The notes: generated by a model not told the origin, from the sequence alone. A DNA stretch of 64,000 bases from Minisyncoccia bacterium (GCA_038251535.1 JBBSBF010000001.1:2232-66231); one strand, 5' to 3'; positions 5,181-47,140 are shown, numbered from the stretch's first letter. A program made the numbers and translations.

Positions 5181-6422
5181 ATGTATACCTATGACGTTAT
5201 TATCGTTGGTGGTGGAGCGAGCGGTATGATGGCAGCTGGAACTGCCGCCAAAAGAGGCAAGAGAGTCCTGTTGCTTGAAAAAAATAAATCTCTGGGAGAG
5301 AAATTAAAAATCACCGGAGGTGGACGATGCAACATCACCAATGCCGAAGAAGACATCAGGAAGTTGTTGGCGCACTACGGTAAGGCAGAGCATTTTCTCT
5401 ATTCCTCGTTTTCGGTCTTTGGGGTGAAAGACACGTTTAACTTTTTTGAATCACGAGGGTTGCCGCTTGTCGTACAGGCACGTAAGCGGGCGTTTCCATA
5501 TACAGAAAAAGCACCTGATGTTGTTGCAGTGATGAAAAAACACGTAACCGATAGAAACATCACGATAAAAACTGGTGTCACGGTAAGAAATATCAACATA
5601 AAAGATGGTGCGATAAGTGGTGTAGTGATTGGTAAAGATATCTACAGCGCAGCGTCCTACATCATCGCCACCGGCGGTATGTCGCATCCAGAAACTGGCT
5701 CTACGGGGGATGGGTTTGGATGGCTTACAGAGCTCGGGCACACTGTTAAACAATCAACTCCGACGATTGTCCCACTTGCGACTAGAGAGCCATGGTCAAA
5801 GGTACTCTCTGGAACATCATTGTCATTTATGAAGATCACGTTCTTTGCCGATGGCAAAAAGGCGTTCAGTAAAACTGGTAAAGTGTTGTTTACGCACTTC
5901 GGACTTTCAGGCCCACTTATCCTTAACAGCGCAAGTACGGTCGCAGACCTTATACAGGAAGGTAAACTAGTGACGGTAACTATTGACGCGTATCCTGACA
6001 CCGATCTTGGTGCACTTGAAGACAAGATCATCAAAACGCTCGATCAGTATAAAAATAAAATGCTCAAAAATGTACTCGGAGAGATTGTGCCACCCGGGCT
6101 CGCGCCAGGTCTACAACTTTTGCTTGCAAGCGATATCAATTTTGAAACAAAAGTGCACAGCATCAGCCGCGACGATCGCAAGAAGTTGGTGTATGCATTA
6201 AAAGCTCTCCCGCTTACGGTCACCAACCTTATGGGGTTTGACCGCGCAGTTGTCGCAGATGGGGGAGTGACATTGACTGAGATAGACATGAAGACGATGC
6301 GAAGCAAAAAAATCCCCAACCTCTACGTGACTGGGGACTTGCTCGACATCACGCGTCCTTCTGGCGGGTACTCACTGCAGCTTTGTTGGACGACGGGGCA
6401 TGTAGCGGGGCTTAGTTGTTAA
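5181..6422 (+). CDS. HI0933/BaiN-family FAD-dependent flavoprotein
   Basis: N-terminal Rossmann YDVIIVGGGASGMMAAG...LLEKN...GGGRCNITN; family-typical length (~410 aa from M at 5181). Confidence 0.8.
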   Translation: MYTYDVIIVGGGASGMMAAGTAAKRGKRVLLLEKNKSLGEKLKITGGGRCNITNAEEDIRKLLAHYGKAEHFLYSSFSVFGVKDTFNFFESRGLPLVVQARKRAFPYTEKAPDVVAVMKKHVTDRNITIKTGVTVRNINIKDGAISGVVIGKDIYSAASYIIATGGMSHPETGSTGDGFGWLTELGHTVKQSTPTIVPLATREPWSKVLSGTSLSFMKITFFADGKKAFSKTGKVLFTHFGLSGPLILNSASTVADLIQEGKLVTVTIDAYPDTDLGALEDKIIKTLDQYKNKMLKNVLGEIVPPGLAPGLQLLLASDINFETKVHSISRDDRKKLVYALKALPLTVTNLMGFDRAVVADGGVTLTEIDMKTMRSKKIPNLYVTGDLLDITRPSGGYSLQLCWTTGHVAGLSC

Positions 6423-6424
6423 CA

Positions 6425-7003
6425 CTATGCGATAGCTTCACACAATATACCAACCCCAACCTTTTTCTCCGCAGAAAATGGCACAATGGTATGCGGACCG
6501 ACGATTGATTGGATCTTTGCGATACTTTTTTTGACATCATTTGCCTTTAGCTTGTCGATCTTGTTTGCGACGATGATGACGTCTTTCTTTTGTTCAGTCA
6601 GGTAGAGTAGCATGTCTTGGTCGTCAGCTGTTGGTCCAACTTTTGCATCGATGATGAGGACTACTTTGTGTTGAGAGATATTGCGGTTCCCAAAGTACCA
6701 AAGGATACGATTGCGCAAGAGTTCTTTGTCTGCAAATGAACCTTTTGCATAGCCGTAGCCTGGAAGGTCGACAAAGTAGTACTTGTTGTTTATGAGAAAG
6801 AAATTGATTTCTTTGGTAAATCCAGGAGCACTACTTGAGCGTGCCAAATTTTTCTCACCAGTGATACTGTTGATGACGCTTGATTTACCAACGTTTGACC
6901 TTCCGATAAATGCTATCTGAGGGAGTGTGTCATCGGGAAGCCCTTTATCGTCGACGACGGATTTGAGAAATATTGCGCTTTTTATTGTCTTAGTTATCGT
7001 CAT
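6425..7003 (-). CDS. engB: Ribosome-biogenesis GTPase EngB/YsxC
   Basis: G1 GRSNVGKSSVIN; G3 DLPGYGY; G4 NKIDK; ~190 aa. Confidence 0.85.
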   Translation of the reverse strand: MTITKTIKSAIFLKSVVDDKGLPDDTLPQIAFIGRSNVGKSSVINSITGEKNLARSSSAPGFTKEINFFLINNKYYFVDLPGYGYAKGSFADKELLRNRILWYFGNRNISQHKVVLIIDAKVGPTADDQDMLLYLTEQKKDVIIVANKIDKLKANDVKKSIAKIQSIVGPHTIVPFSAEKKVGVGILCEAIA

Positions 7004-7752
7004 TTCGTGAGCATAGCACGAATGTAGGCTTTGGTCTCATCGATGTTTTTGACCGACACGCACTCGATACCAGAAGCCTTCGCTGGCTCATCGTTGCCAC
7101 CCGGGTAGAGCGCATCGCCAACAAAGACCATATCGGAGATGGGTATCGATAAAACTTTTGATAATTGCTGGATGCCATACGTTTTGTCGATACCTTTTTT
7201 AGTAATATCAATAGAATTCGTTCCTCCTATATGCACTGTGTATTGTGGTAAACGTTTTATGAAATAAAAAATAATTTCTTTCCGCTTTGATCTATCTGGA
7301 TCCCACGAGCTCTTTTCCTGAAGTGGAGCATCTTGGCCGAGCGCTGAAAAGGTTATTTGTGAACCCCGGTCCTCTATTTGTGCGCCGTGAATTTTTTCAG
7401 GAATATTGCCAGTTGCAAAGGCAGCTTCGTGCAGCATTGTAGTAATCTCGTCACTTTCGACGAGTGATAGCGTGTGCATATAAATTTCTTGCCAATCATT
7501 ATGTGTGTAGCGATACATGGCCGTGCCAGATGTTGGAAGGAGGTATAGTTTTTGGTACTGGAGAGAGGAGAGTGGTAATTGTGAGAGAAACTGTTTTTTG
7601 TACTGGGCGAGTGATCCACCACTCATCACGGCGATATAGTGGTCGTGATCAATCAACTGCTTCAACAATGTTGCCATCTCGCTATCGAGAGGTTGCTTGC
7701 TTTCGGCGAGCGTACCATCGAGATCAAATACGATTACTTTTTTGGACATCAT
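7000..7752 (-). CDS. HAD-superfamily phosphatase (IIB/PMM-like), possibly a sugar-phosphate phosphatase
   Basis: Motif I VIVFDLDGTL; motif IV FVGDALYPGGND; ~250 aa; 4-bp overlap with engB. Confidence 0.7.
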   Translation of the reverse strand: MMSKKVIVFDLDGTLAESKQPLDSEMATLLKQLIDHDHYIAVMSGGSLAQYKKQFLSQLPLSSLQYQKLYLLPTSGTAMYRYTHNDWQEIYMHTLSLVESDEITTMLHEAAFATGNIPEKIHGAQIEDRGSQITFSALGQDAPLQEKSSWDPDRSKRKEIIFYFIKRLPQYTVHIGGTNSIDITKKGIDKTYGIQQLSKVLSIPISDMVFVGDALYPGGNDEPAKASGIECVSVKNIDETKAYIRAMLTK

Positions 7753-7757
7753 AACTA

Positions 7758-9650
7758 TTAGGAAAGTGTTTCTAGAATTTTGGATAATTTGGCAGTTGCA
7801 ACACCGGTGACTGCATCAGCAGCGCCGTAGTAAATATATAGTGTATTACCTCGTTTGACCAAGCCACATGGGAACACAACGTTGTTAACGATACCGTTCA
7901 ATTCATAAAACGCCTTTGGTTCAAACAACGGCAGTGCAGTTCGTGCCAAAACAATGGTCGGATCATCGAGATCGAGGAGTGCGGCACCGACGCTGTAGAC
8001 ACTGGTCGGGGATACGCCGTGATACAAGAGCAACCAACCTTTTTTTGTCTTGATCGGCGGAGCACTGATACCAACTTTTCTCCCGTCCCACATTCCACGT
8101 CTCGGAGAAAGTACTTCGATACAGCGCGATACTTTTTCTTTTGAAAAATCAAATGTGGGGAGAACGTCTGCGCAGATGTTGCTATCGATACGGTGCAGCA
8201 CGACGTATCCTGCCTTTGTTTTTCCTGGAACGATGCACCCGTCTTTGTCATCAACTGATGGAGGAGTGATCAGTAATGGTTCTGACCAGTTTTTCCATTT
8301 TTTGTCGAGGAAGTCTGCTTTGGAAATAAAACTTGACGCAACTCGAGGTAGATTGCCATCATATGCAGTATAAAAGATATATATGAAATCTCCCATGACG
8401 ACAGCTCTCGGATCTTCACATCCTGAGTTTCCTGGGCGCTGTTTATTTTCATATATTCCCCGAGGTACGTAGATCGGCTTACTTCCTCGTTCGGAAATCG
8501 TAACGCCGTCTGTTGATGCGGCCCATCCAACAGTCGATGTATCATCGTCCGACATTGCTCGATAGAGTATGTAGATAGTACCAGCGAGTTCGATTGCTGC
8601 AGGGTTAAAGACTCCGTGTGCTTCCCACGCTACCTTTGGTCTTGGTGCGAGTATTGGATTGTTGGCAAATCGGGTAACGATGTCTTTCTGTCGGTACATT
8701 GCTCCAATGAGACTCTTTAGGTTTACACTTGCTCTACAGCAGTGGGTGTCTGATCCACCATAGTATATATCGAGCATATCACCGCGAATAATCGCACCTG
8801 AAGGAAAGATAATCCTTGATATGGTGCCGATTTTTTCATAAAAAAGTTCGGGTACCATAAACGGCTTGTTGGTGTTGCCGATGATTTTGCGAGGTTTCTT
8901 GAGATCAAGTAAAAGACTCTGGATACCAAATATTGGAGTACCGTTTCGGTATTCTTGGATATGCGAATAGATCAGGAGCCATCCTTCTTTGGTTTTGACC
9001 GGTGGACTGCCAATCTCTACTTGTTCGTTGTCGTTGTGAGGAATGACGAGTGTACATTCATCAACGTGTTCGTACCAGTTGTTCCAAAAATCCATATCCC
9101 AGAGTTGCTCGATTGTATCAAATTCTGCAACGGCTATCTTGGTATGTGGTCGATCGGTATCGACGGTAAGGAGTGCACAGATTTTTCCATTGATACGCTC
9201 AGGAAATAACGACATTGCCTTTGCGTTAAACGGTGTTACCAGATGTTTTTCTGACACAGTTTCCAAGTCGTCACTGATCGCGAGCGCTACCTTTATGTTG
9301 TCAGGACCAAAGGGAAAGTTAGAGATAGCGGTATAAAAGATGTAATATCTCCCTTCAAACTTTGTCACTCTCGGGTCTTCGCAGCCGTATCGTTCGTAGT
9401 CTTCGTCAGTGGTTATAAATGGTCGTCGATCGGTGAAATCAACACCGTTTGTGCTGACCGCCTTGCCGATGATTGATTTGGGGATGCGTGGTTCGGCCAA
9501 AAGCTCTGGATGCGACATCGCACGATACAACAAGTGAGTAGTTTTTCCAATTTTTATAGGACAGCCGTTAAATGTTGCTTCAGCCTCCCATGGATGTTCG
9601 GGGATAGGTGAGAGTATAGGATTGTGTGGGTATCGGTGGATGGTAAACAT
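7758..9650 (-). CDS. Tandem GH130-family glycoside phosphorylase (two GH130/DUF377 modules, mannoside-phosphorylase-like)
   Basis: Both halves carry FNPAAI/FNGCPI...LYRAMS...GCEDPR...YIFYTAYDG signatures; 630 aa is about twice a single GH130. Confidence 0.75.
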   Translation of the reverse strand: MFTIHRYPHNPILSPIPEHPWEAEATFNGCPIKIGKTTHLLYRAMSHPELLAEPRIPKSIIGKAVSTNGVDFTDRRPFITTDEDYERYGCEDPRVTKFEGRYYIFYTAISNFPFGPDNIKVALAISDDLETVSEKHLVTPFNAKAMSLFPERINGKICALLTVDTDRPHTKIAVAEFDTIEQLWDMDFWNNWYEHVDECTLVIPHNDNEQVEIGSPPVKTKEGWLLIYSHIQEYRNGTPIFGIQSLLLDLKKPRKIIGNTNKPFMVPELFYEKIGTISRIIFPSGAIIRGDMLDIYYGGSDTHCCRASVNLKSLIGAMYRQKDIVTRFANNPILAPRPKVAWEAHGVFNPAAIELAGTIYILYRAMSDDDTSTVGWAASTDGVTISERGSKPIYVPRGIYENKQRPGNSGCEDPRAVVMGDFIYIFYTAYDGNLPRVASSFISKADFLDKKWKNWSEPLLITPPSVDDKDGCIVPGKTKAGYVVLHRIDSNICADVLPTFDFSKEKVSRCIEVLSPRRGMWDGRKVGISAPPIKTKKGWLLLYHGVSPTSVYSVGAALLDLDDPTIVLARTALPLFEPKAFYELNGIVNNVVFPCGLVKRGNTLYIYYGAADAVTGVATAKLSKILETLS

Positions 9651-9673
9651 GCTGTTTGTTTTTTATTAAATAA

Positions 9674-10813
9674 TCATGCGCTCGTATCGCGGCCGTACTT
9701 CTTGAGCCACTTGAGGAGTTCGTCGAGTGGAGTGCGTGCGACGCATACATATTTGTCGCCACCACCATAGTACACGAACAAATCTGATTCATGAACGACT
9801 GCACCAGAAGCGTAGATCACTCCAGGCTTTGAATCATTTTCATAATGAAATTCTGGAGAAAGTATGGGGTGCGGAGAGCGATAGAGAATCTTTTGAGGAT
9901 TATCGATGTCGAGTATCATTGCACCAAGTTTGTATTTATTTGGATCGCGATGATCCATAGAGTGATACAACAGTAGCCATCCCAAACTGGTCTTGATCGG
10001 CGGAGCACCGGCACCACGGACCATCGAGTCCCAGTGCTCCTTTCGTCCGTAGTAGTTGTGAGCGCCATCGTGCGGGGGACGGCTTTTGATCGGAGAAAGT
10101 TCGAGGGTACGTACATCCTCGACATACTCCACGAGGATTTCTGGTGAGATGCCGTGAAGTATTGCAAATTTTCCATGTATTTTTTCTGGAAAGAGTGACC
10201 AGTTTTTATGTGGTTCGCCTTTTGGAGATATAAGGATAGGCTTTGCCCAATCCCATCGGTTTTGTTTCAAGTCATCGAGTGATATAGAAGTAAGAGCAAC
10301 TCGTATCGATTGCCATCCTTCAAATGCGACATAGGTCATGTACACTCGACCGTCTATCACTACCATTTTTGGATCTTCACATCCTGCCCAACCTCCACCG
10401 GAACCGTAGAGTACTTGGTCGTATGTTTGCTCAACAGAAGGGATTATTGAATTTTCAGGAGTTGCTTGATATACCGGATACGGAGAGCGCTCACTAAAGG
10501 TAACACCGTCCTGCGAAGTACTATGTCCGATCTGAGATGTACCACCGCGACCAATAGCACGATAAAAAAGGTGAATCATCCCATTGTCGTCTTTGACTGC
10601 GGCGGGATTAAAGGTACTTTCGTTTTCCCATTCGCGATGTTCTTGGGGACTGACTAGTGGGTTGCATACCTCACGAGTCAAATGATAAGGGGGTGCGTTT
10701 TTACTACTAGATTTGCGACGTATCCTGCGCAAGACATACGAAATCGCAAAAATGCAAAACAAAAATGCAAGCAGCACTAAAAAAAATATGTTTGAAAACA
10801 GGGATTCAATCAT
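9674..10813 (-). CDS. Membrane-anchored GH130-family glycoside phosphorylase
   Basis: N-terminal TM IFFLVLLAFLFCIFAISYVL followed by FNPAAVKDDNGMIHLFYRAIG...GCEDPKMV...YMTYVAFEG. Confidence 0.75.
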   Translation of the reverse strand: MIESLFSNIFFLVLLAFLFCIFAISYVLRRIRRKSSSKNAPPYHLTREVCNPLVSPQEHREWENESTFNPAAVKDDNGMIHLFYRAIGRGGTSQIGHSTSQDGVTFSERSPYPVYQATPENSIIPSVEQTYDQVLYGSGGGWAGCEDPKMVVIDGRVYMTYVAFEGWQSIRVALTSISLDDLKQNRWDWAKPILISPKGEPHKNWSLFPEKIHGKFAILHGISPEILVEYVEDVRTLELSPIKSRPPHDGAHNYYGRKEHWDSMVRGAGAPPIKTSLGWLLLYHSMDHRDPNKYKLGAMILDIDNPQKILYRSPHPILSPEFHYENDSKPGVIYASGAVVHESDLFVYYGGGDKYVCVARTPLDELLKWLKKYGRDTSA

Positions 10814-10818
10814 AGAGT

Positions 10819-11172
10819 TTATGTTCGACCATACAGGTCTTCGACTCTAGTAATATCATTTTCATCAAAATCCCCGTACGCAATCTCAAGTACAACCAAC
10901 GGTTCAGTGTTTGCCTGGAGTCGATGGAGCATGTCACGAGGAATGGCATAATCACCTCCAACGATGATATCGGCAGTGGATAGTCCGATCGTAATAGTTC
11001 CGTTACCCGATATAACATGCCATTGTTCATCGCGCTTGCTATGTTTTTGTAAACTAAACGCTTGACCGCGCTCTATAGTCAGCAACTTTACAGTCAGTGG
11101 TGCGTTGTGTACAAAGGTTATAAATTTCCCCCATGGTCTTTCTTCGGTTACTGGTTTTGAAGTTCCATCCAT
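10819..11172 (-). CDS. Cupin-fold protein, type II phosphomannose-isomerase C-terminal-domain-like
   Basis: ERPWGKFITF...ERGQAFSLQKHSKRDEQWHVISGNGTITIG cupin motifs; 117 aa. Confidence 0.65.
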   Translation of the reverse strand: MDGTSKPVTEERPWGKFITFVHNAPLTVKLLTIERGQAFSLQKHSKRDEQWHVISGNGTITIGLSTADIIVGGDYAIPRDMLHRLQANTEPLVVLEIAYGDFDENDITRVEDLYGRT

Positions 11173-11251
11173 GCTTTATTTTACTATAAAACATAGCGCT
11201 TTGTACACAATATCCCCACCTATTTTTTCTGTGGTAGTCTACAATACTCGT

Positions 11252-11671
11252 ATGAAATTATCGGACATCATGATATTTGCAAAAAGACGAAGTCTGAGAA
11301 GAATGGTTCGTCGAAAAAAGGCACCCAAACCCATACCTATCGAGGTTCAGCGTGCCGCTCGAGTGCTCGTTCATCAAAAACTCGCGCAGTTCAACCTGTC
11401 GTATGCTTTTCAGTACCATAGAGTGGCGATACGAAACCAGTCGACTCGATGGGGGAGCTGTTCGAGTAAGGGAAATCTCAATTTTAACTACCGCATCATT
11501 TTTTTACCGCCCGAACTCCAAGACTATCTGATCGTTCACGAGCTTTGCCATCTCAAAGAACTCAATCATGGGAAGAAATTTTGGGAGTTGGTATCACAGA
11601 CGATCCCAGACTACGAACGACGCAAAAAAGCGCTGCACTCGATGGATCGTATGATTGGACACCATGCATAA
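11252..11671 (+). CDS. YgjP/DUF45-family zinc metallohydrolase
   Basis: WGSCSSKGNLNFNYRIIFLP...LIVHELCHLKELNHGKKFWELV (HExxH). Start chosen at MKLSD within the 11105 ORF, because the upstream part overlaps the cupin gene on the other strand. Confidence 0.75.
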   Translation: MKLSDIMIFAKRRSLRRMVRRKKAPKPIPIEVQRAARVLVHQKLAQFNLSYAFQYHRVAIRNQSTRWGSCSSKGNLNFNYRIIFLPPELQDYLIVHELCHLKELNHGKKFWELVSQTIPDYERRKKALHSMDRMIGHHA

Positions 11672-11686
11672 TGCTATACTGTCGCT

Positions 11687-12052
11687 ATGAGTTCAAAACG
11701 AATACTCCTCCTGTGTACGCTACTGGTACTTGTCCTCTATGTAGTAGAGGTACGAAAGGAAAGCAATATTTCAACTGTTATTCCGTCAATTGAAACAACG
11801 ACCAACTATGATGAGGGCGAAACAGTTGAAAAATACATTCGAACGCTCGATGTGACAACCTTGACGGGGGTTAATCCTGTACTGGGTGGGAACATGTATC
11901 TCACAGCGGTCAGAGTGGATACGCTGTCCCATACTGCTGTGATCGAGTACGAAGATGGACACATTGCGGGGAACGCATCGATTTCTTATACCTTTGATTC
12001 GGTGACTGGGGGAGTGACTGTCGTCAAAGTTACCCCGGAGAGTACCCAATAG
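11687..12052 (+). CDS. Hypothetical exported protein (N-terminal signal/TM)
   Basis: MSSKRILLLCTLLVLVLYVV hydrophobic N-terminus; no recognisable domain. Confidence 0.45.
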   Translation: MSSKRILLLCTLLVLVLYVVEVRKESNISTVIPSIETTTNYDEGETVEKYIRTLDVTTLTGVNPVLGGNMYLTAVRVDTLSHTAVIEYEDGHIAGNASISYTFDSVTGGVTVVKVTPESTQ

Positions 12053-12108
12053 TACATTTGGTAGAAACTTGTGTATAATTGAGCTATTAGCAATAAATCG
12101 TAAATTGT

Positions 12109-12471
12109 ATGCAAGTAATATTTTTAATCGGACGAATTCTCCTCGGTGGATACTTTCTCTATAGCGGATACAATCACTTCGCAAACCTCGCAGGGATGAC
12201 TGGCTATGCAAAAATGAAGCGTGTGCCTATGGCAAAGGCATCAGTGATCATCAGTGGTGCCATGCTTGCGCTTGGCGGGTTAGCCATCCTTGCGAACCGA
12301 TTTGCAATCCTCGGGATGCTCCTCCTTGTTCTCTTTTTGATCCCAACGACATTTATGATGCATGCCTTTTGGAAGGAACAGGATCCTGCAGCTCGGATGA
12401 CAGAACGTGTCAGCTTTATGAAAAACATCGCAATCCTCGGTGCACTCCTCCTTCTTGTTTCGATTGGATAA
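12109..12471 (+). CDS. DoxX-family membrane protein
   Basis: RILLGGYFLYSGYNHF...; four TM segments; ~120 aa. Confidence 0.7.
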   Translation: MQVIFLIGRILLGGYFLYSGYNHFANLAGMTGYAKMKRVPMAKASVIISGAMLALGGLAILANRFAILGMLLLVLFLIPTTFMMHAFWKEQDPAARMTERVSFMKNIAILGALLLLVSIG

Positions 12472-12996: not shown

Positions 12997-14688
12997 GTGG
13001 AGATGACTCAATCTCAAGCACTCGATATATTGAAAACAGGGGCAAATGTTTTTTTAACTGGAGAACCCGGGTCTGGCAAGACTCATACGGTCAACGTCTA
13101 TGTGGAGTATCTGCGCGCGCATGGGATCGAACCAGCGATCACTGCGTCGACCGGTATTGCTGCGACACACATTCATGGGCAGACGATTCATTCGTGGAGT
13201 GGTATCGGGATCAACCGTACACTTTCACCGTACGATATCGATCGTATTGCAACCACCGAACACGTCGTCAAACGAATACAAAAAACAAAAGCGCTCATTA
13301 TCGATGAGATCTCAATGATCGATGCTACCACACTTGATATGGTCGATACTATTCTTCGAGCGATCAAGCAAAACGATGAGCCATTTGGTGGTATACAGAT
13401 CGTGATGGTGGGGGATTTTTTTCAACTGCCACCGATCACACAAGTAGGGCAACAACCACACTTTGCTTTTGTAGCCTCAGTGTGGGGTCGGATGAAGCCA
13501 GTCATTTGTTATTTGACCGAACAACATCGCCAACGAGATACTGAGTTTCTCTCCCTTCTCTCTGCAATACGAAAAAATACCTATGGTCCAGAAGATCACC
13601 GTGTTATCGAACGCAAGCTCTATCAACCAACTGACGATGTCATCCATGACTTTACTGCAACACGATTGTTTTCTCACAATAAAAATGTCGACGCGATCAA
13701 CACCGTAGAGCTCAACAAACTACCGACTCTTTCAACGTGTTTTCTGATGCAAAGCAAGGGGAGGGAAACACTTGTCGCGCAATTAAAAAAGGGTTGTCTT
13801 TCTCCCGAAGAACTCGAACTAAAGATCGGTGCAGTGGTCATGTGTACAAAAAACAACCAACAAAAGGGCTATGCAAATGGGACTCTGGGCACGGTCCTTG
13901 GATTTGAGCCGGGAACGAAGTTTCCCATTATCGAAACAAAAGATGGCATACGTATCACGATCGAACCAGCAGAATGGATCATCGAAGAAAACGGTAAAAC
14001 AAAGGCAATGATTACGCAAGTCCCGCTTCGGCTCGCGTGGGCTATTACGATTCACAAAAGTCAGGGAATGAGTCTCGATGCGGCAGTGATGGATCTGCGA
14101 GATGTCTTTGAATACGGACAAGGATACGTTGCACTCTCGCGAGTCCGCTCACTCGACGGGCTACATATTTTGGGTTGGAATAGACAGGCGTTTTTGGTCC
14201 ACCCTCAGATTTTGGAAAAAGATCAGTATTTTATGCGTCAATCCGAATCAGCGGCTGCGATTTTTGGCGATATGTCGCAGATAGAACGAGAAAAGATGCA
14301 GCACAACTTTGTCCTCGCCTCAGGAGGAGTGGTAGATCGTGTTAAGAAGAAATCAACAAAGAAAGTTGCAGGGGATACGTTTCAAACAAGTCTTGCGCTT
14401 GTGTTACAAGGCAGGTCTATCGGAGAGATTGCAAAGGAGCGCAGCTTGGCCCCCGTGACCATCATTGGGCATATAGAAAAACTCGTACAACAACGTAGGT
14501 TGGGCGTTGCCGATATTATCTATCTTATCGATAAAAAAACGTTCAGTGGATTTGAAGATATCAAGGCGACATTTGTAAGTCTGGACACATCTAAACTTAC
14601 TCCGATACGTGAACATTACAATGGTAAGTTTACCTATGAACAATTGCGGTTCGCTCGGATGCTGATAGAGCTCGGTTATCCACACTAA
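12997..14688 (+). CDS. PIF1/RecD-like SF1 ATP-dependent DNA helicase with C-terminal HTH
   Basis: Walker A LTGEPGSGKTH; Walker B LIIDEISMID; GDFFQLPPI; UvrD_C_2-like ITIHKSQGMSLD; C-terminal helix-turn-helix region. Confidence 0.85.
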   Translation: MEMTQSQALDILKTGANVFLTGEPGSGKTHTVNVYVEYLRAHGIEPAITASTGIAATHIHGQTIHSWSGIGINRTLSPYDIDRIATTEHVVKRIQKTKALIIDEISMIDATTLDMVDTILRAIKQNDEPFGGIQIVMVGDFFQLPPITQVGQQPHFAFVASVWGRMKPVICYLTEQHRQRDTEFLSLLSAIRKNTYGPEDHRVIERKLYQPTDDVIHDFTATRLFSHNKNVDAINTVELNKLPTLSTCFLMQSKGRETLVAQLKKGCLSPEELELKIGAVVMCTKNNQQKGYANGTLGTVLGFEPGTKFPIIETKDGIRITIEPAEWIIEENGKTKAMITQVPLRLAWAITIHKSQGMSLDAAVMDLRDVFEYGQGYVALSRVRSLDGLHILGWNRQAFLVHPQILEKDQYFMRQSESAAAIFGDMSQIEREKMQHNFVLASGGVVDRVKKKSTKKVAGDTFQTSLALVLQGRSIGEIAKERSLAPVTIIGHIEKLVQQRRLGVADIIYLIDKKTFSGFEDIKATFVSLDTSKLTPIREHYNGKFTYEQLRFARMLIELGYPH

Positions 14689-14747
14689 TATTTTTATGGG
14701 TACGATTTTGTATTATACTGTAGGTATTATCAGTAAGAAGCATTTTG

Positions 14748-14810
14748 ATGGCAAAAGGAAACAACAGTCAGAAAAAGGAAGCAAAAAAACCGAAGAAGGC
14801 AAAGAAATAA
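14748..14810 (+). CDS. Very small Lys-rich peptide (20 aa), hypothetical
   Basis: MAKGNNSQKKEAKKPKKAKK, followed by its own hairpin terminator at 14841-14869. Confidence 0.25.
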   Translation: MAKGNNSQKKEAKKPKKAKK

Positions 14811-14840
14811 TTTGCCCGTTTCGACAAACCGATATTAAAG

Positions 14841-14869
14841 AAAGACCGTAACGAGCGGTCTTTCTTTTT
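14841..14869 (+). terminator. Rho-independent terminator
   Basis: aaagaccg-taacgag-cggtctttctttttg. Confidence 0.6.
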
Positions 14870-14924
14870 GCGTAATATATGGTAGAGTAATTTCAAACAT
14901 TCACAATTTAAAAAGGAGGAAAAA

Positions 14925-15599
14925 ATGAGTGAACTGACTACGCTCACTAAAGAAGATTACATATTCGCAGATGAGTTGCTTAAGCAAATAGGATATTCAA
15001 TTATCAAGAAGAAAGACAAGAGTCAAGATTTTTTCAGACTAAAACTTGAAGCGCCACGTCGCATTACAGGAAGCGAAATTGGTTTCTATTATTCCAACAA
15101 GGAATACACGGCAAAATTTTGGACATCATTTTTATTTGAGGAAGAGAAATTTCGCGATAAAGGAAAAGATGCATTTTGGCCCATCATTACGCAAGGTGAT
15201 GCGTTAGTATATAGTGCTAAACCAATATATCGTAACGATAGAGAAGCATTACTAAAAGCTCTACGGTATGCGTGGATCAATAAATGGAAAATAGATAATA
15301 TTCCACTGTGTCCATATTGTAATGCTCGAATGATTATCTTTCGAAAGAAAGACACACGATGTTATATGTATGCGTGTAAAAAAATCGAAAGTCACCCTAA
15401 TGGTAAATGGCGGTTTAGAAGTTGGGATTATGGACTTAAAGAAAATGCACAAGCGTTTGTACAAATCAGACGTGATGCGACTGTCAAGTATAAGCAGCGT
15501 ATGAAAGCGCTGGGTAAAAATCCTATTCCTGCAGCAGTACTACGAAAAAGATGGAAGATTGGAAACAATAGTAATTTTATCGAGAATCGTTTTAGGTAA
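14925..15599 (+). CDS. Hypothetical protein with C-terminal CxxC...CxxC zinc-ribbon
   Basis: CPYCNARMIIFRKKDTRCYMYACKK; SD-like aaaggagg upstream; terminator hairpin aagccttgtttgaacagggctttttt at 15605-15630. Confidence 0.5.
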   Translation: MSELTTLTKEDYIFADELLKQIGYSIIKKKDKSQDFFRLKLEAPRRITGSEIGFYYSNKEYTAKFWTSFLFEEEKFRDKGKDAFWPIITQGDALVYSAKPIYRNDREALLKALRYAWINKWKIDNIPLCPYCNARMIIFRKKDTRCYMYACKKIESHPNGKWRFRSWDYGLKENAQAFVQIRRDATVKYKQRMKALGKNPIPAAVLRKRWKIGNNSNFIENRFR

Positions 15600-15657
15600 T
15601 TTCTAAGCCTTGTTTGAACAGGGCTTTTTTTATGTACAATTTGCTATACTAAACCAT

Positions 15658-17562
15658 ATGACCGTTCCGTATGATCCCGAACACATCACGTATTTTGCTG
15701 AAACTGATGCACGCAATCAGCGGATTAAATTTGGCATCAAAAGTCGTGATCGTACACGCCACATGTACGTCATCGGTAAAAGTGGCGTAGGGAAGTCGAC
15801 ACTTTTAGAAAACATGGCGATCCAAGACATCCAGCACGGAGAAGGTGTTGCAGTCCTGGATCCTCACGGAAGCTTTGCTGAAAAGATGCTCGAGTATATC
15901 CCCGAACACCGCATCAAAGACGTCGTGTATTTTGCTCCGTTTGATACGGACAACCCGATATCGTTCAACGTACTCGAAGACGTGGGTGCAGATCGTCGAC
16001 ACCTCGTCGTTTCGGGACTGATGAGTACGTTTAAAAAGATTTGGGTTGATGCATGGAGTGCGCGTATGGAGTACATCCTGACCAACACACTCCTCGCACT
16101 TCTCGAGTATCCAGGGGCAACACTTCTCGGAGTGAACCGCATGCTTTCTGAAAAAGGATTCCGGAAAAAAGTGGTAGAGAACATCACCGATGCGGCGGTC
16201 AAGGCGTTTTGGACTGAAGAATTTGCAAACTATACGGAACGAATGGCAGCAGAGGCAGTGCCCGCAATCCAAAACAAGATTGGGCAGTTCACCGCAAATC
16301 CACTCGTGCGCAACATCATCGGCCAATCCAAATCAACCTTTGATCTACGCAAGGTAATGGATGAACAAAAGATACTGATCATCAACCTCTCCAAAGGACG
16401 CATCGGAGATACCAACACGAGTCTTCTCGGTTCGATGATCATTACCAAGATATATCTTGCAGCCATGAGTCGTGCAGAGCTTTCACAGAGTCGTATGGGA
16501 GGACTACCCAACTTTTATTTCTACGTTGATGAATTTCAATCGTTTGCAAACGAGACGTTTGCCGATATCCTTGCAGAAGCTCGGAAATACAAACTTGCGC
16601 TTATCATTGCGCATCAGTATGTAGCACAAATGGAGGAAAAGGTGCGTGATGCAGTATTTGGAAACGTTGGTACGACGGTGTCGTTTCGCGTGGGACCACT
16701 CGATGCCGAGCTCTTGGAAAAAGTCTTTGCACCACAGTTTACGCAAAACGACATCATCAACCTCGGGATGGCTGAGATTTATCTTTCACTCATGATCAAC
16801 GACATCGGGTCACCACCGTTTTCTGCTCGGACTCTCGCACCCTTGGCGCGTCCTGCTATAACATTTCGCAATGACGCAATCGAATCATCGCGTAGTCAGT
16901 ACGCATTTCCAAAAGAAACAGTAGAAAAAAACATCGCAGAATGGTTTGCCGCAGGTAGCGAGCCGGTGGAGGATAAAACACAAAAGAAAACTCGTTTTGT
17001 AGAGGGTGATCGATCAGTGCAAGCATTTTCTCCGCGACCTTCGTACCCAGAGATACGGACCGCTTCAACAGGTCCTGGACAGACAAAGACCCCGCACACA
17101 TTTCCACCTAAAAAAGTAACACCAGCAACCCATAAACCATTTGCCAAAGCATTGATAAAGCCCGTAGTCTCGCAGGTATCCACAGATTCTCCGGCTCCGC
17201 AATCTGATGTAGTACAAAAAGAAGATAACCCACAGCCGTCTTTGACACTAAAGCATCTCCTGGATTCTCTCGATACTACCGCTCCACCGATAGTAATGAA
17301 AGATAAACCAGAATCCCCATTTGTCGGTGAGAAGCCACTTCGCGAAAGTGTTTCGCCAGTCAAACACGCCGAACGCGGTCCTACAGAGAAAAATCGCGAC
17401 CTTCTCAAAATGGCGCTACAAAAGGCAACTCAGCAACAACCATTGCGGACAGAAAAAACAGAAACTGAAGCAGTGAAAACGGTGTCTGCTGACAGCACAA
17501 CATTAACGGCAAACCACACGAGCGAAGTTTCTTCCGATGCCCTAAGGCAACTATTGGAATAA
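15658..17562 (+). CDS. P-loop ATPase of the VirD4/TraG/HerA-FtsK (DUF87-like) superfamily with a long disordered P/T/S-rich C-terminal tail
   Basis: Walker A VIGKSGVGKSTLLEN; Walker B-like FYFYVDEFQSF; LALIIAHQYVAQ motif; no N-terminal TM; last ~200 aa low-complexity. Confidence 0.6.
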   Translation: MTVPYDPEHITYFAETDARNQRIKFGIKSRDRTRHMYVIGKSGVGKSTLLENMAIQDIQHGEGVAVLDPHGSFAEKMLEYIPEHRIKDVVYFAPFDTDNPISFNVLEDVGADRRHLVVSGLMSTFKKIWVDAWSARMEYILTNTLLALLEYPGATLLGVNRMLSEKGFRKKVVENITDAAVKAFWTEEFANYTERMAAEAVPAIQNKIGQFTANPLVRNIIGQSKSTFDLRKVMDEQKILIINLSKGRIGDTNTSLLGSMIITKIYLAAMSRAELSQSRMGGLPNFYFYVDEFQSFANETFADILAEARKYKLALIIAHQYVAQMEEKVRDAVFGNVGTTVSFRVGPLDAELLEKVFAPQFTQNDIINLGMAEIYLSLMINDIGSPPFSARTLAPLARPAITFRNDAIESSRSQYAFPKETVEKNIAEWFAAGSEPVEDKTQKKTRFVEGDRSVQAFSPRPSYPEIRTASTGPGQTKTPHTFPPKKVTPATHKPFAKALIKPVVSQVSTDSPAPQSDVVQKEDNPQPSLTLKHLLDSLDTTAPPIVMKDKPESPFVGEKPLRESVSPVKHAERGPTEKNRDLLKMALQKATQQQPLRTEKTETEAVKTVSADSTTLTANHTSEVSSDALRQLLE

Positions 17563-17563
17563 T

Positions 17564-18871
17564 ATGAAGTACAGTATCCTCATTCTAATCTTTTGTTGGT
17601 TATTGAGTGCATCGTATGCGAATGCTCAAATACACATCACCGAGATAGCATGGATGGGTACTGCCAACAGTCAGTATTCAGAATGGATAGAGCTATACAA
17701 TGACGCGACAACTTCGGTAAATCTTGCAGGTTGGAAGCTGTACGAATCAAGCAGTACGCTCATCATCGCTCTTTCCAAAACGATTGCAGCGCAAGGGTAT
17801 TTGTTAGTTGAACGAACGACGGCAAGTGCTCCCGATGCAGTACCAGGAGTTGATGATGAGGCAGGTTCTTTTGGTGGTGGAGGACTTGCCAATACTGGTG
17901 AGAAACTCATTCTCAAAGATGCAAATGGGAGTACAGTCGAATCACTGGACTTTAGTAGTGGGTGGCCAGCCGGAGATGCAACAACAAAACAAACGATGCA
18001 GTGGACGGGGAGTGATTGGATTACTGCCGACCCAACCCCAAAGGCACCGACAGCTACCTCACAAGGCACCACTGAGGATACTGTACCGACCGTCGAAGAT
18101 TCCGATCCCATCCCAAAAGTATCTCCCAACAAGCCGTACATTGCATTTGAAATACCACCTGTAGTGTATAGCGGTACCGCACATGAGTACAACGCTCATC
18201 CAGTTTATGAATACAACTATCAGTTTGATACAGGTAACATGTACTGGAACATGGGGGACGCGACGATGTATCGACAAAGCGCAATCGCGCCCGTCGTGCA
18301 CACGTATCAGTTTCCTGGAACGTACACGATCTCGTACTCGTTCGCAGATCCTGAAAACCGCCAACTTCCACTCACTGGCACCAAAAAAATAACCGTCGTA
18401 GCTCCCACGTTATCACTCACCACGCTCAATCACAAAGCACTCGTCATACAAAACAATGCACCACAGCCGATCGATCTAACGGGATGGAAACTCAATACGC
18501 CTGATAAGGTCATAGCGATACCTGACCAAACGATCATCGCCGAAGGAGCAACTATCGCATTACCATTTTCTATACTTTCGATTACGAGCGATACGTATTT
18601 TTCTATCACTGATCCTTCAGGTGTACTCGTGGCAACTACAAAGCCTGGGCAGGTACCAGTTGTAACATCGCGATCTTCAGCGCCTACCACTGTCCTGGCT
18701 GACGAATCAACCCTTACTCCTTCGGCTGAAATTACAGAAAATCCGACAACACCTTCACCAGAAAAAGCTCCAACAAACAAGCGCACCAGGACATATATTC
18801 TTGGTGCGCTTGGTATATTCGTTATAGCCTTGTCGTTACTCCTTGAGCGTTTTATGGCTCGACAGGAGTAG
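17564..18871 (+). CDS. Secreted lamin-tail-domain (LTD) protein with C-terminal membrane anchor
   Basis: Signal peptide; LTD signature ITEIAWMGTANSQYSEWIELYN...GWKL repeated (second LTD near residue 290); C-terminal TM ILGALGIFVIALSLLL. Confidence 0.65.
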   Translation: MKYSILILIFCWLLSASYANAQIHITEIAWMGTANSQYSEWIELYNDATTSVNLAGWKLYESSSTLIIALSKTIAAQGYLLVERTTASAPDAVPGVDDEAGSFGGGGLANTGEKLILKDANGSTVESLDFSSGWPAGDATTKQTMQWTGSDWITADPTPKAPTATSQGTTEDTVPTVEDSDPIPKVSPNKPYIAFEIPPVVYSGTAHEYNAHPVYEYNYQFDTGNMYWNMGDATMYRQSAIAPVVHTYQFPGTYTISYSFADPENRQLPLTGTKKITVVAPTLSLTTLNHKALVIQNNAPQPIDLTGWKLNTPDKVIAIPDQTIIAEGATIALPFSILSITSDTYFSITDPSGVLVATTKPGQVPVVTSRSSAPTTVLADESTLTPSAEITENPTTPSPEKAPTNKRTRTYILGALGIFVIALSLLLERFMARQE

Positions 18872-25800: not shown

Positions 25801-26201
25801 CAGATCAGGTAGGTAATACAACAACATTAATCAAATCAATTCTGGTCACTTATATATTCAAAGGTTTTAAACCAGTGTCATTTGATACTATTTCCTTCGA
25901 TCAAAACAATAAAGTCCCTATTAGATTTAGCTTGAAATCAAAAAACGGAATAGTCATTCCACTACTTCATCCAACCCTGTCTATCGTTCGATCTGCGGAT
26001 GGGTATCATTTGCCAGTCAACCCTGATACCTTTGACGAAGATCCCAATTGCGATTCTGATGACGATTGTTTCATCAACCATCACAATAGATATAAATATG
26101 TTGTTCCGGGCAATTCGTTTCCGTCTCTTGGACAATGGATAATTACAGTTGGATTAGATGATGGGAAGAGTTATACTGCTACTGTGAATATAATTTCTTA
26201 A
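22851..26201 (+). CDS. Giant (1116 aa) secreted surface protein: parallel beta-helix repeats plus an internal lytic-transglycosylase (SLT/lysozyme-like) motif
   Basis: Signal peptide MKKLKRYGVLFIFFASLSLCHTSSVFA; repeated N/T/I-rich ~22-aa beta-helix (PbH1-like) units; IAAQESGGINFNNEYVSFDYGHGVMQVTPDAY matches the SLT E-S...G-(L/V)-M-Q signature. Confidence 0.7.
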   Translation: MKKLKRYGVLFIFFASLSLCHTSSVFAATIIQDVITTDTMWTKDNSPYVISGIVDVNPGATLSIQAGTIIKFEDNATIEIFGAMAIMGTQTEPVYATSIADDSIGGDTDNNGITDPANITNSFVNFAFLSPQGVQKMDYLHFKYGQVYIDSGNLDIAYSLFEHSAISADTSTIHISATSFLDPDLIALDANNNTTIVADTITIQNGKTDGVNIYDNSSLVMSNSTIDTLYGSAIVGFNTSAITIKNTNIDSADIGIEIFNHTSLVADNTTIAHMQYAGVSVYETSTAKITKSLITDTYDGVEIFNNSIVNLDHDKIQDSLDTGIISFGNYGSNSIDISNTDISQNFVGIYSINFTHINTFIDNSIYNNVNGAQTFETNTIDMKNNWWGGVTGPTHPSNLLGTGDVVSDYILFTPWLTIDPINPTAVIPLQYYAKLDASGVINLYELPDTTSLLVKTLPHDWIVKVLSVDPVIANGSLWYKVEDPTDGSQMWTIAAPASISTPIYLPYNENNQGVYQQSGVDILTTKASRAQSIVNAIDHYYGNTSTTPSIDSSDDHSLKISTLVQAGFPKELIMAIAAQESGGINFNNEYVSFDYGHGVMQVTPDAYKNEKPGGKFTNNKEDSRGVLSDIHLKKCDEVNSDNYKKCYKNTESFNNKLKSYDNYQHDPVNFVYKQYTNTTQSIFANIKDGLGILSSKYRHVFVHPCSSSVTYGGEVFSCTDIDMIKAVWGYNGAVTTPANNYLKLISQKLTNLNAYFANHSYPNSDHLIQKLAIANDNRIELKAHSPIAIEAIDSQGRVTGLNNAGDMLSDIPNSYYDPEDETALILFPEDTYTYQVTGDGTGPSYGFDITIERDSASPLVFQASDIPIAEGEIHTFHIDEAVLAAGGNGTTIDIDSDGDGTPEKTITTGALLNDTTPPLIDETLIAPNYILGDKINLKKIISDNQTKKKNIVLSATWDMVPLALTNNTIILPSIGSHSLTITATDQVGNTTTLIKSILVTYIFKGFKPVSFDTISFDQNNKVPIRFSLKSKNGIVIPLLHPTLSIVRSADGYHLPVNPDTFDEDPNCDSDDDCFINHHNRYKYVVPGNSFPSLGQWIITVGLDDGKSYTATVNIIS

Positions 26202-32686: not shown

Positions 32687-32688
32687 TG

Positions 32689-32771
32689 TGCCGGAGAGAG
32701 GACTTGAACCTCCACACCCTTGCGAGTATTCGATTTTGAGTCGAACGCGTCTACCATTCCGCCACACCGGC
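32689..32771 (-). tRNA. tRNA-Leu (anticodon CAA), long variable arm
   Basis: Reverse complement gccggtg-tggcggaatggtag...tcga-ctCAAaa-tcga...ggaggTTCAAGTcctct-ctccggc-a; 83 nt. Confidence 0.8.
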
Positions 32772-32942
32772 AATGTACAAAATATACTGCGTATTTTGTA
32801 TCCCTTTCGGGACCATTGCCGGTGTGTCGGCCACATCATTCCATTCTGATATAAAGCAAAGCAGTTTGCTTTATATCCACACCTGCAATTTCCTTATTCT
32901 ACAGTGCATTTTGGGGATTGCAAGAAAGAGTTTTGGGGATAC

Positions 32943-45959: not shown

Positions 45960-46009
45960 AAACAAAAAACTGTATTTAATAAATACAGTTTTAAAATAGT
46001 TTTTTAATT

Positions 46010-46354: not shown

Positions 46355-46400
46355 TGTATGGTAGTTTTAATTTAAATGGATATTATAATATTTCCTTTAT

Positions 46401-46442: not shown

Positions 46443-46480
46443 AAATAAAAAACTGCATCAATTGTTGATGCAGTTTAAAG

Positions 46481-47101: not shown

Positions 47102-47140
47102 GCTATATGATTTTTCTGTATATTACATACTATTTATAAT

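Follow-up and report, generated by a model that had tools for sequence, protein, structure and literature searches.

Background

Phosphorylases of glycoside hydrolase family 130 (GH130) are known to pass their product, mannose-1-phosphate (Man-1-P), on to other enzymes: there is precedent for a route through phosphomannomutase (PMM) and phosphomannose isomerase (PMI) into glycolysis, and the GH130 cluster of Thermoanaerobacter ties Man-1-P to GDP-mannose (PMC4264767). Here we describe a locus with a different make-up in a 64,000-nucleotide stretch of DNA from a Minisyncoccia bacterium (GCA_038251535.1, JBBSBF010000001.1:2232-66231), the whole of which is called the window. Four adjacent genes encode a tandem protein with two GH130 modules (the N-module and the C-module), a membrane-anchored GH130 enzyme, a hexose-phosphate mutase of the HAD-IIB type and a stand-alone cupin of the PMI type. 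We think it probable that this operon of the Paceibacteria (Patescibacteria, or candidate phyla radiation, CPR) processes beta-1,2-mannosides in the cytoplasm and links them to fructose-6-phosphate (Fru-6-P).

The residues by which GH130 enzymes can be told apart have been described (PMC7660257, Table 2; PMC4599007; PMC12814180). The proton donor is an Asp; inorganic phosphate (Pi) is bound by an Arg (UhgbMP R168, equivalent to Uhgb_MS R202) and a His (H231); and the +1 subsite is formed by an Arg, by a Glu (beta-1,2 and beta-1,3 enzymes) or Tyr (beta-1,4), and by a Lys (beta-1,2) or Arg, together with a C-terminal Asp. The same papers describe the hydrolases of the family as devoid of the basic residues and dependent on Glu227 and Glu268. 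According to PMC12814180, the phosphates in Uhgb_MS are held by K184, R202 and R242, all GH130 phosphorylases have the phosphate Arg, which separates them from hydrolases, and the Uhgb_MS R202A variant loses phosphorolysis 16-fold and transferase activity altogether.

Results

A conserved operon in Paceibacteria

The cupin, anchored GH130, tandem GH130 and HAD genes follow one another at gaps of 5, 23 and 5 nt (Table 1). An earlier note on this DNA had placed these four products on the minus strand at 7000-11172 with short or overlapping junctions, and open reading frames (ORFs) together with Pfam and NCBIfam matches confirm both points, the HAD stop overlapping the EngB start by 4 nt. The note had counted five consecutive genes; there are four, the supposed fifth being the EngB GTPase gene, which lies outside that interval and is not conserved beside the others.

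One Logan contig and one NCBI record contain the exact tandem protein. The match list is filled by full-length relatives (626-640 aa, 52-82% identity), whose named sources are Candidatus Paceibacterota, Parcubacteria, Taylorbacteria, Nomurabacteria, Wolfebacteria and Minisyncoccota. In a collection holding one genome per species, relatives of the tandem protein turn up in at least 578 species-level genomes, and a relative search finds the anchored GH130 to be equally widespread, so that architectures once taken to be uncommon prove to be common in this lineage. Many TPA-assembled metagenome-assembled genomes (MAGs) with the cassette, L003, L004 and L008 among them, carry the name 'uncultured Candidatus Saccharibacteria bacterium'; the name looks generic rather than taxonomic, and should not be taken as a sign of the cassette in Saccharibacteria.

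For synteny, ORFs were called in the 80 best-matching loci, all with a full-length tandem match, and searched with the window's proteins; counts for each gene include only those loci where the neighbour was assessable (73-75 of 80). The order cupin, anchored GH130, tandem GH130, HAD is near-invariant, and the four genes, with their three GH130 modules, PMM and PMI, span about 4.2 kb. The anchored GH130 gene lies directly upstream of the tandem gene in 73 of 74 assessable loci, the cupin gene precedes the anchored GH130 gene in 68 of 73, and the HAD gene directly follows the tandem gene in 65 of 75, with two more nearby. This co-occurrence is far beyond chance.

Table 1. Genes and modules of the mannoside operon and the adjoining gene (positions in the window)
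Feature	Position	Strand	Support
Cupin, stand-alone type II phosphomannose-isomerase-like, 117 aa	10819..11172	-	PF01050 MannoseP_isomer, 61.6 bits (cut-off 23.6)
Membrane-anchored GH130 (T-type), 379 aa	9674..10813	-	PF04041, E 1.5e-33, and N-terminal hydrophobic helix
N-terminal transmembrane helix of anchored GH130, ~aa 4-28, then basic cluster RRIRRK	10730..10804	-	
Tandem GH130 protein, 630 aa	7758..9650	-	Two PF04041 stretches, E 5e-87
N-terminal GH130 module of tandem protein (N-module), aa 1-320	8691..9650	-	
C-terminal GH130 module of tandem protein (C-module), aa 321-630 and stop codon	7758..8690	-	
HAD-IIB hexose-phosphate mutase, eukaryote-type PMM / L. lactis alpha-phosphoglucomutase family (predicted), 250 aa	7000..7752	-	TIGR01484, 75.8 bits (cut-off 41.8); PF08282
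EngB/YsxC ribosome-biogenesis GTPase	6425-7003	-	TIGR03598, 180.9 bits

Family placement of the three GH130 modules

That all three modules belong to GH130, as had been proposed, is borne out by PF04041, by propeller models from AF2 and, for the tandem protein, by Foldseek, whose best 35 matches are all GH130 structures, led by 7FIR, 7FIP, 9GPH and 9FJ8 with TM-scores on the target of 0.85-0.89. The models have a predicted local distance difference test score (pLDDT) of 92.9 and a predicted TM-score (pTM) of 0.88 for the tandem protein, and 90.4 and 0.87 for the anchored enzyme. From its pTM, the two propellers of the tandem protein are predicted to be held in a fixed arrangement. In PDB sequence searches, the closest solved relatives of every module are Teth514_1788 (9FJ8) and Teth514_1789 (7FIP), with E-values of 1e-40 to 1e-47. 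The N-module matches 7FIP and 9FJ8 best (E about 5e-44), the C-module 9FJ8 and 7FIP (about 1.5e-47), and the anchored enzyme 9FJ8 (1.8e-45) and then 7FIP. For all three modules, Lin0857 and Uhgb_MS follow and, after these, beta-1,4 enzymes. The best NCBIfam model for each module is that of beta-1,2-mannobiose phosphorylase (NF052550).

A neighbour-joining tree was built from 25 sequences each of the N, C and anchored (T) types and from characterised GH130s. Each type is monophyletic, and the three radiate with the Teth514 pair, far from the hydrolases BT3780 and BACOVA_03624; the possibility raised in the earlier note, a grouping with hydrolases, is thus not what the tree returns. The N type has the longest stem. 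The three modules are about 30-34% identical to one another and are therefore old paralogues. Orthology of single modules to Teth514_1788 as against Teth514_1789 (long-chain versus disaccharide) was also considered, and identities of 33-35% throughout give no signal for it.

Three differentiated active sites

The three active sites differ, and each is under selection. The catalytic Asp (the column of UhgbMP D104 and Teth514_1788 D92) is invariant in all three types, as D92 in 119 homologues of the N-module, D413 in 119 of the C-module and D147 in 120 of the anchored enzyme. Equally invariant are the beta-1,2 determinants of the +1 subsite, namely the Glu before the Asp and the Lys in the column of BT3780 K199 and UhgbMP R150 (E91/K144, E412/K469 and E146/K203). 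The phosphate Arg (UhgbMP R168, Uhgb_MS R202, Teth514_1788 R161) is kept throughout in the C-module only. All three modules had been read as phosphorylases, subject to a check of the catalytic Asp and the phosphate residues. The Asp is there in all three and the canonical phosphate Arg is absent from two; the reading stands for the C-module, which has the full set of phosphate ligands, and does not extend as it was to the N-module and the anchored enzyme, whose phosphate sites deviate in a conserved way.

The C-module is invariant, or nearly so, in its 119 homologues at N349, R364, E412, D413 (the proton donor), K469, H486, R487, K525, H544 and D612. R487 is the phosphate Arg, found in 119 of 119, H544 is the phosphate His, and K525 fills the basic position of the 'RVG' motif. 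Judged by its residues, this is a complete canonical beta-1,2-mannoside phosphorylase signature. We propose that the C-module works as an inverting beta-1,2-mannoside phosphorylase, in which Asp413 would donate its proton through the substrate O3, phosphate would be held by K469, R487, K525 and H544, and the product would be alpha-mannose-1-phosphate.

The N-module is invariant in 119 homologues at N28, R43, E91, D92, K144, D166, E212, H230, F241 and D301, and because N28, R43, E91, D92, K144 and D301 are retained, its sugar subsites and acid are taken to be intact. Its phosphate site has a different composition. The column of the phosphate Arg (167) is R in 66 of the 119, L in 22, K in 9 and N in 7; the equivalent of the HR motif reads D166-x, the Asp being invariant; and the equivalent of the RVG motif consists of Q or H, then V, I or L, then E212, an invariant Glu (codon 9015-9017). 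An invariant Phe241 stands where a Tyr contacts O1 or phosphate, and the column of the phosphate His is Ser229 with the invariant His230 adjacent, although alignments disagree by one position here. With the BT3780 and BACOVA_03624 sequences recovered via a chimeric PDB query (the paper's numbering is the chain numbering less 4), E212 shares a column with BT3780 Glu268 ('TECGPP'), a column that is Gly in all phosphorylases examined, and D166 falls outside the Glu227 column. Between the HR- and RVG-equivalent motifs, the N-module has a Trp-rich helical insert of its own at about aa 178-200 (9057-9116 corresponds to aa 179-198), in which E181, W184, W189 and W192 are invariant.

All 120 database relatives of the anchored enzyme have N69, R85, E146, D147 (the proton donor), K203, Y294 and D353; H220 and H284, the latter in the column of the phosphate His, are nearly invariant. 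Position 221, the column of the phosphate Arg, is Gly here (codon 10151-10153) and S, G, A, C, N or T elsewhere, but never Arg, in 72 locus-derived and 120 database relatives. R266 is conserved as well, shifted by one residue from the 'RVG' Arg of phosphorylases. An insert with an invariant S-G-G-x-W-x-G (consensus SGGGW.G), where pLDDT is low, directly precedes the catalytic E-D. Either this insert or that of the N-module might have a part in shaping the plus subsites.

The N-module and the anchored enzyme would thus be ancient, separately conserved paralogues that have kept the -1 and +1 beta-1,2 residues and the catalytic Asp and have changed at the nucleophile or phosphate site. We infer the chemistry of these two sites from their residues. 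With Glu212 at the general-base column of the GH130 beta-1,2-mannosidases and an invariant Asp166, the N-module is most likely hydrolytic, or uses a non-phosphate acceptor, on part of the substrate, and its chemistry may resemble that of GH130_3 hydrolases although it is not a member of that subfamily. True GH130_3 membership is ruled out by scores against hidden Markov models (68 bits against a cut-off of 550 for the GH130_3 model NF058598), by the tree and by the lack of a signal peptide; a dead scaffold is ruled out by the invariance of the catalytic Asp, the sugar-binding residues, D166 and E212. For the anchored enzyme, weakened or altered phosphorolysis, or transfer, are the options that its residues suggest.

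An anchored enzyme predicted to face the cytoplasm

The N-terminal helix is conserved in 107 of 120 relatives of the anchored GH130, and AF2 draws one long helix over residues 2-33. Among 72 homologues, the median Kyte-Doolittle value over 19 residues is 2.78, the flank before the helix has a median of 2 residues with a mean of 0.26 K/R, and the 15 residues after it have a mean of 4.9 K/R, the C-terminal flank being the more basic in 70 of 72. By the positive-inside rule, this charge asymmetry gives an N-out/C-in topology, with the catalytic domain in the cytoplasm some 20 residues from the membrane, an answer by that rule to the question of inside or outside that the earlier note had put. A secreted or surface-exposed enzyme, whether through a Sec signal peptide or an N-in anchor, is ruled out by the charge distribution in the same 70 of 72 homologues.

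In the tandem protein no signal sequence precedes the catalytic domain, which begins at the N-terminus. Since the anchored enzyme is predicted to be C-in and the tandem protein is unsignalled, all proteins of the operon are expected to act in the cytoplasm, a location that fits enzymes using Pi and sugar phosphates. GH130 hydrolases, in contrast, are secreted (PMC4599007). At the inner face of the membrane, the anchored enzyme would most likely act on a membrane-proximal substrate, either incoming or lipid-associated, or as a transferase.

A predicted mutase and isomerase leading to fructose-6-phosphate

The HAD-IIB protein had been called a phosphatase, and a PMM was to be looked for elsewhere in the genome. 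The search ends within the operon: the simplest reading of the HAD protein is that it is itself the PMM, a mutase of the PMM/alpha-phosphoglucomutase (alpha-PGM) type rather than a generic phosphatase. Its best solved relative is the L. lactis alpha-PGM (4BND; E 1.8e-38 over residues 4-248 of 250), followed by the eukaryote-type PMMs 6I5X, 2I54, PMM1 and PMM2 (E 5e-14 to 6e-8), and PF03332 (PMM) matches at 41.9 bits (cut-off 22.4). Its 66 homologues keep the motifs FDLDGTL (D10, D12), EDR..Q.T.S.LGQ (R129), GG.TS.D.T (S180-I-D182) and GD.L..GGND (G212-D...G218-G-N-D), and printed alignments show the GD....GGND motif, with its PGG insertion, to be common to the HAD protein, 4BND and the PMMs. 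In the cap, S180-x-D182 and DKTY are of the PMM type (ISFDV, DKTY), whereas the L. lactis alpha-PGM has TINGF and NKEF; we take the S-x-D to be a sugar-phosphate ligand, following the structural literature on PMM1. The assignment as PMM thus derives from the similarity to mutases, the PMM-type motifs and a mannose-6-phosphate isomerase gene in the same operon. The protein would interconvert Man-1-P and mannose-6-phosphate (Man-6-P) via a phospho-enzyme at Asp10.

Taken literally, three phosphorylases with a sugar-phosphate phosphatase would end in free mannose or a dephosphorylated mannosyl solute. Membership of HAD-IIB (TIGR01484) and weak matches to phosphatase models agree with such a scheme, and mammalian PMM1 also has bisphosphatase activity. 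Nevertheless, the matches to models of sucrose-6-phosphate, trehalose-6-phosphate and phosphoglycolate phosphatases all stay below their cut-offs, whereas PMM is above its own, the similarity to mutases is full-length and includes the PMM-type GD....GGND motif, and a phosphatase would waste the energy of phosphorolysis and leave the adjacent PMI without a substrate. In addition, two of the three modules lack the phosphate Arg that, according to PMC12814180, 'all GH130 GPs possess'. We regard this scheme as the least likely of those considered, and as very improbable.

The cupin matches only the C-terminal PMI part (361-467 of 467) of TIGR01479, the bifunctional GDP-mannose pyrophosphorylase/PMI (GMP/PMI). 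In 68 homologues, the motifs RPWG, SLQ.H..R.E.W, HR and LE..G.F..DI.R..D.Y.R are at least 90% conserved, and Q42, H44, R47, E49, W51, H83 and R84 fall within these putative metal or substrate motifs. Family membership and context suggest that it is a type II PMI, which would interconvert Man-6-P and Fru-6-P. The flow from Man-1-P through Man-6-P to Fru-6-P that the earlier note had sketched is supported, with both PMM and PMI supplied by the operon, and so is a specificity for mannose in the genes that flank the GH130 pair.

Direction of flux and origin of the mannoside

Cellular Pi far exceeds Man-1-P, which favours phosphorolysis. No Man-1-P guanylyltransferase and no glycosyltransferase lies within 10 kb of the cassette in any of the 80 loci, and none of the clustered flanking ORFs there is a transporter, glycosyltransferase or nucleotidyltransferase linked to it. 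The window likewise has no sugar importer, classical PMM or ManC, and its sole glycosyltransferase is an unrelated GT4 some 50 kb off. When the ManC, GT2, epimerase and dehydrogenase of a variant locus (L082, described below) were used as phmmer queries against the 80 loci (10 kb), no homologue of ManC, GT2 or the dehydrogenase was returned, and the epimerase gave one weak match. With no linked source of GDP-mannose in this clade and with cellular Pi on the side of phosphorolysis, we favour a catabolic net direction. This direction, like the enzymatic activities and the origin of the mannoside, is deduced from what the sequences show directly: gene content, conservation, residue patterns, predicted fold and the charge asymmetry about the anchor helix.

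The same enzymes could also serve an endogenous reserve, in which Paceibacteria would make and remobilise an intracellular beta-1,2-mannan or oligomannoside much as Leishmania does with mannogen. Synthesis or primer extension would then fall to the anchored, Arg-less GH130 as a synthase or transferase, mobilisation to the phosphorylase of the C-module and trimming to the N-module as a hydrolase, with PMI and PMM working reversibly to and from Fru-6-P. Such a cycle would suit an operon that is self-contained, without a transporter, wholly cytoplasm-facing and very widely kept in strongly reduced genomes. Its three diverged paralogues resemble the MTP array of Leishmania, with its strict transferases and dual transferase/phosphorylases, and Foldseek also finds MTP1, MTP2 and MTP4 (E 1e-9 to 1e-11). 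Reverse phosphorolysis is, however, unfavourable at cellular Pi, no ManC or other GDP-mannose source occurs within 10 kb in the 80 loci, and no beta-1,2-mannan is reported for these bacteria among the top-ranked literature matches. PMC12814180 bears on both sides: GH130 beta-1,2 enzymes, including Teth514_1788, have a short L2 loop and measurable GDP-mannose transferase activity, but in Uhgb_MS replacement of the equivalent Arg by Ala abolished transferase activity. We consider a reserve cycle unlikely, although it is the strongest of the alternatives.

Variant loci

Two loci depart from the common arrangement. A 971-aa protein (P0038; Logan SRR23086387, L082 18-8916) fuses a T-type module, without the anchor, to an N-type and a C-type module, and by its domain make-up is a Rosetta-stone link among all three GH130 module types. 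Its gene overlaps an upstream ManC gene (nucleotidyltransferase and beta-helix, without the PMI domain), and ahead of the fusion, on one strand, lie ManC, a 652-aa GT2, an epimerase/dehydratase, a BcsS-like protein and a UDP-Glc/GDP-Man dehydrogenase; the locus has neither PMM nor PMI. The gene order is changed in the second variant, which encodes the HAD-type PMM, the cupin, a 624-aa protein (a degenerate propeller and a T-type module) and a 637-aa tandem GH130. From these variant loci, Man-1-P appears to be a hub, tied to Fru-6-P in the window's clade and, with ManC present and PMM and PMI missing, to GDP-mannose in the organism of P0038.

A second kind of tandem protein, in which an N-terminal propeller-like domain of about 290 aa takes the place of the membrane anchor before a T-type GH130, was seen in P0157, P0202, P0208, P0222, P0232 and P0239, as well as at L081 7958-9886 and L076 1056-3035, the last assigned from ORF length alone. 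On reading P0157 and P0202, no catalytic E-D motif was seen in the propeller-like domain. One protein of this kind comes from a complete Candidatus Wolfebacteria genome (CP011209.1).

The P0038 locus also bears on whether the module builds, remodels or recycles a beta-mannosylated glycan or glycolipid of the membrane or cell surface, in which case a lipid-linked substrate at the inner leaflet would be the target of the anchored enzyme. The co-orientation of the fusion with ManC, GT2, the sugar-nucleotide dehydrogenase and the epimerase speaks for an envelope role, as do the conservation of the anchor noted above and the frequency of DD-carboxypeptidase, pilin and PAP2 genes as neighbours. A Man-1-P guanylyltransferase and a GT4 are also present in the Thermoanaerobacter GH130 cluster (PMC4264767). 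In the window's clade, however, no glycosyltransferase, flippase or ManC is linked, the frequent neighbours differ from locus to locus and are encoded on the opposite strand, the natural fusions P0038 and P0202 do without the anchor, and PMI and PMM point to central carbon metabolism. An envelope function therefore seems improbable to us, more so than a reserve cycle.

Several observations weigh against cytoplasmic beta-1,2-mannoside breakdown to Fru-6-P, the reading that we prefer. The sugar transporter that the earlier note wished to see is not among the linked genes: neither in the window nor in the 80 loci does the operon have a sugar transporter, a binding protein or an extracellular mannanase beside it, and natural beta-1,2-mannans are known to be rare, a weakness of this reading on the side of substrate supply. 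It is on these two grounds, no linked importer and the rarity of beta-1,2-mannans, that the reserve and envelope explanations are kept alive. The P0038 homologue, adjoining ManC and a processive GT2, points to glycan biosynthesis in its own organism. At the level of the enzymes, the NF052550 scores (N-module 186, C-module 218 and anchored enzyme 194 bits) are all far under the equivalog cut-off of 450, so by this model the modules are relatives of the characterised beta-1,2 equivalog and not members of it. For the HAD protein, mannose specificity depends on the cap motifs and the gene context, its closest solved relative being a glucose-phosphate mutase. A PDB sequence search gave no solved relative for the cupin, and it has no characterised close relative. 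Finally, in the sister family GT108, phosphorylase and transferase activity cannot be told apart from the active-site residues alone (PMC10913872), which weakens the roles given to the N-module and the anchored enzyme.

Gene neighbourhood

EngB, a YgjP-like ORF and DoxX were considered as operon members and ruled out, as none recurs beside the cassette in the 80 loci. Clustering of flanking ORFs found no family besides the cassette itself in more than 37 loci; the commonest are DD-carboxypeptidase, type IV pilin, PilB/PilC, BipA and a PAP2 protein, most of them encoded on the opposite strand. A promoter and terminator scan of 6000-12200 gave matches no more numerous than in shuffled sequence, and an Rfam scan of the window returned tRNAs only, with no riboswitch near the operon. 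The YgjP-like metallopeptidase ORF (HExxH; 11105-11671, plus strand) matches PF01863 over profile positions 109-206 of 207 only and, with a TTG start, overlaps the 5' end of the divergent cupin gene by 68 nt; it is uncalled in the Logan record, and is probably a shorter form with a downstream Met start.

The rest of the window is ordinary Patescibacteria housekeeping, including tRNA synthetases, topoisomerase I, RelA/SpoT, ParB and DprA, together with an RF-2-like protein, BipA, DD-carboxypeptidase and a VirD4-like ATPase. At 12997-18871 on the plus strand, a Pif1-family helicase with a C-terminal HTH_40 (12997-14688) is followed by a 224-aa ORF without a Pfam match, a VirD4/TrwB-like coupling ATPase (15610-17562) and a lamin-tail-domain protein (17564-18871); this cluster could belong to the Patescibacteria type IV secretion or DNA-uptake machinery of recent preprints. 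A 1116-aa protein (22851-26201, plus strand), whose sole Pfam match is a right-handed beta-helix, may be surface- or adhesin-like and sits in the part of the window with the lowest GC content (22-28 kb, 0.35-0.40). A tRNA-Leu(CAA) at 32688-32771 (minus strand) lies inside the longest possible ORF for MiaA, the isopentenyl pyrophosphate (IPP) transferase (31814-32839, minus strand), and since the MiaA Pfam match begins at residue 55, the real start is placed downstream of the tRNA. The region 46000-50000 is low in GC (0.34-0.37) and contains several short ORFs, a MaoC-like dehydratase (46481-47101) and a histidine-phosphatase-family protein (48297-48845).

Discussion

Significance for Paceibacteria

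Genomes of Paceibacteria are about 0.6-1 Mb in size and have very few carbohydrate-active enzymes. That at least 578 species-level genomes have a relative of the tandem enzyme, and that the 80 best-matching loci retain the cassette, implies that beta-1,2-mannosides, glycans which few organisms are known to have, are a core substrate or product for the lineage, and identifying the mannoside would show what these uncultured cells eat, store or take from hosts. Three natural variants of one site (full phosphate, Arg-less and Glu-bearing), with one pair of modules fused in a confidently predicted fixed arrangement, also offer a ready system for the question of what makes a phosphorylase, a hydrolase or a transferase, and the set is a source of new catalysts for beta-1,2-mannoside synthesis. 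More speculatively, and with little confidence on our part, the three diverged GH130s might run an intracellular or inner-leaflet beta-1,2-mannan pool, a counterpart of mannogen, that the tethered Arg-less enzyme initiates or extends, the phosphorylase mobilises and the N-module trims with an independently gained Glu212, PMM and PMI tying it to glycolysis. Were this true, a major group of ultra-small bacteria would have a store of carbon and energy that has gone unrecognised, and a phosphorylase would have become a hydrolase in GH130 for a second time, independently.

Comparison with known systems

The nearest described enzymes are the Teth514_1788/1789 pair (GH130_6) of Thermoanaerobacter sp. 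X-514, which share 33-35% identity with the modules of the window, Foldseek TM-scores of 0.85-0.89 and the E-D and Lys determinants. They too are two paralogues encoded side by side, in parallel to the fusion found here, and in both systems the Man-1-P product would be passed on. The Thermoanaerobacter genes, however, are separate and their products soluble, whereas here two modules are fused and one enzyme is anchored, and both Teth514 enzymes keep the full phosphate site that only the C-module has here. Their cluster, with an ABC importer, GH5, GT4 and Man-1-P guanylyltransferase, leads to GDP-mannose salvage; the operon of the window, with its HAD-type PMM and mini-PMI and without a transporter, would lead to Fru-6-P.

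The GH130_3 hydrolases BT3780 and BACOVA_03624 share with the modules their fold, the -1 subsite and the Lys that determines beta-1,2 specificity. The N-module approaches them further, with Glu212 in the Glu268 column and basic phosphate ligands lost or variable. They are secreted and form a distant clade, though, and the N-module scores 68 bits on their model as against 186 on the phosphorylase model; unlike BT3780, it has a His beside the column of the phosphate His, a Phe for the O1-contacting Tyr and D166 outside the Glu227 column.

Leishmania GT108 MTP1-7 and dual-activity GH130 enzymes such as Uhgb_MS are likewise five-bladed propellers that act on beta-1,2-mannosides, with paralogue arrays that vary at the phosphate site and divide transferase from phosphorylase roles, and with a cytoplasmic location. 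GT108 is nevertheless a different sequence family, matched at the fold level only (Foldseek E 1e-9 to 1e-11, 15-19% identity) and not by sequence in PDB searches. The switch residue of the MTPs is His versus Arg, while the corresponding column here is Ser, Gly or Ala, and no GDP-mannose supply is linked.

With PgmH (4BND) and the eukaryote-type PMMs (PMM1/2 and Leishmania PMM), the HAD protein shares the HAD-IIB fold, DxDxT, EDR...S.LGQ, GD....GGND and alignment over its full length. PgmH is reportedly glucose-specific. The PMM-type S-x-D and DKTY of the HAD protein have no counterpart in PgmH, and its gene sits in a mannose operon. The cupin has the same domain as the type II PMI of bifunctional GMP/PMI (TIGR01479; AlgA/ManC type), including RPWG, SLQxHxxRxExW, HR and DIxRxxDxYxR, but stands alone at 117 aa without a nucleotidyltransferase domain, and the second His of its HxH is not conserved.

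All component families were already known, as were GH130 clusters that pass Man-1-P to other enzymes. The GH130 and GT108 literature consulted as comparison for the cassette mentions neither a membrane anchor nor a tandem fusion, and among the top-ranked matches only one work pairs GH130 with CPR or Patescibacteria terms, a single mention of GH130 in a Microgenomates genome paper. Relative to the literature searched, new elements are a conserved trio of apparently differentiated beta-1,2-type GH130 sites, the fusion together with a predicted cytoplasm-facing anchor, the pairing of a HAD-type PMM with a stand-alone mini-PMI, and a near-universal cassette of this kind in a large CPR class.

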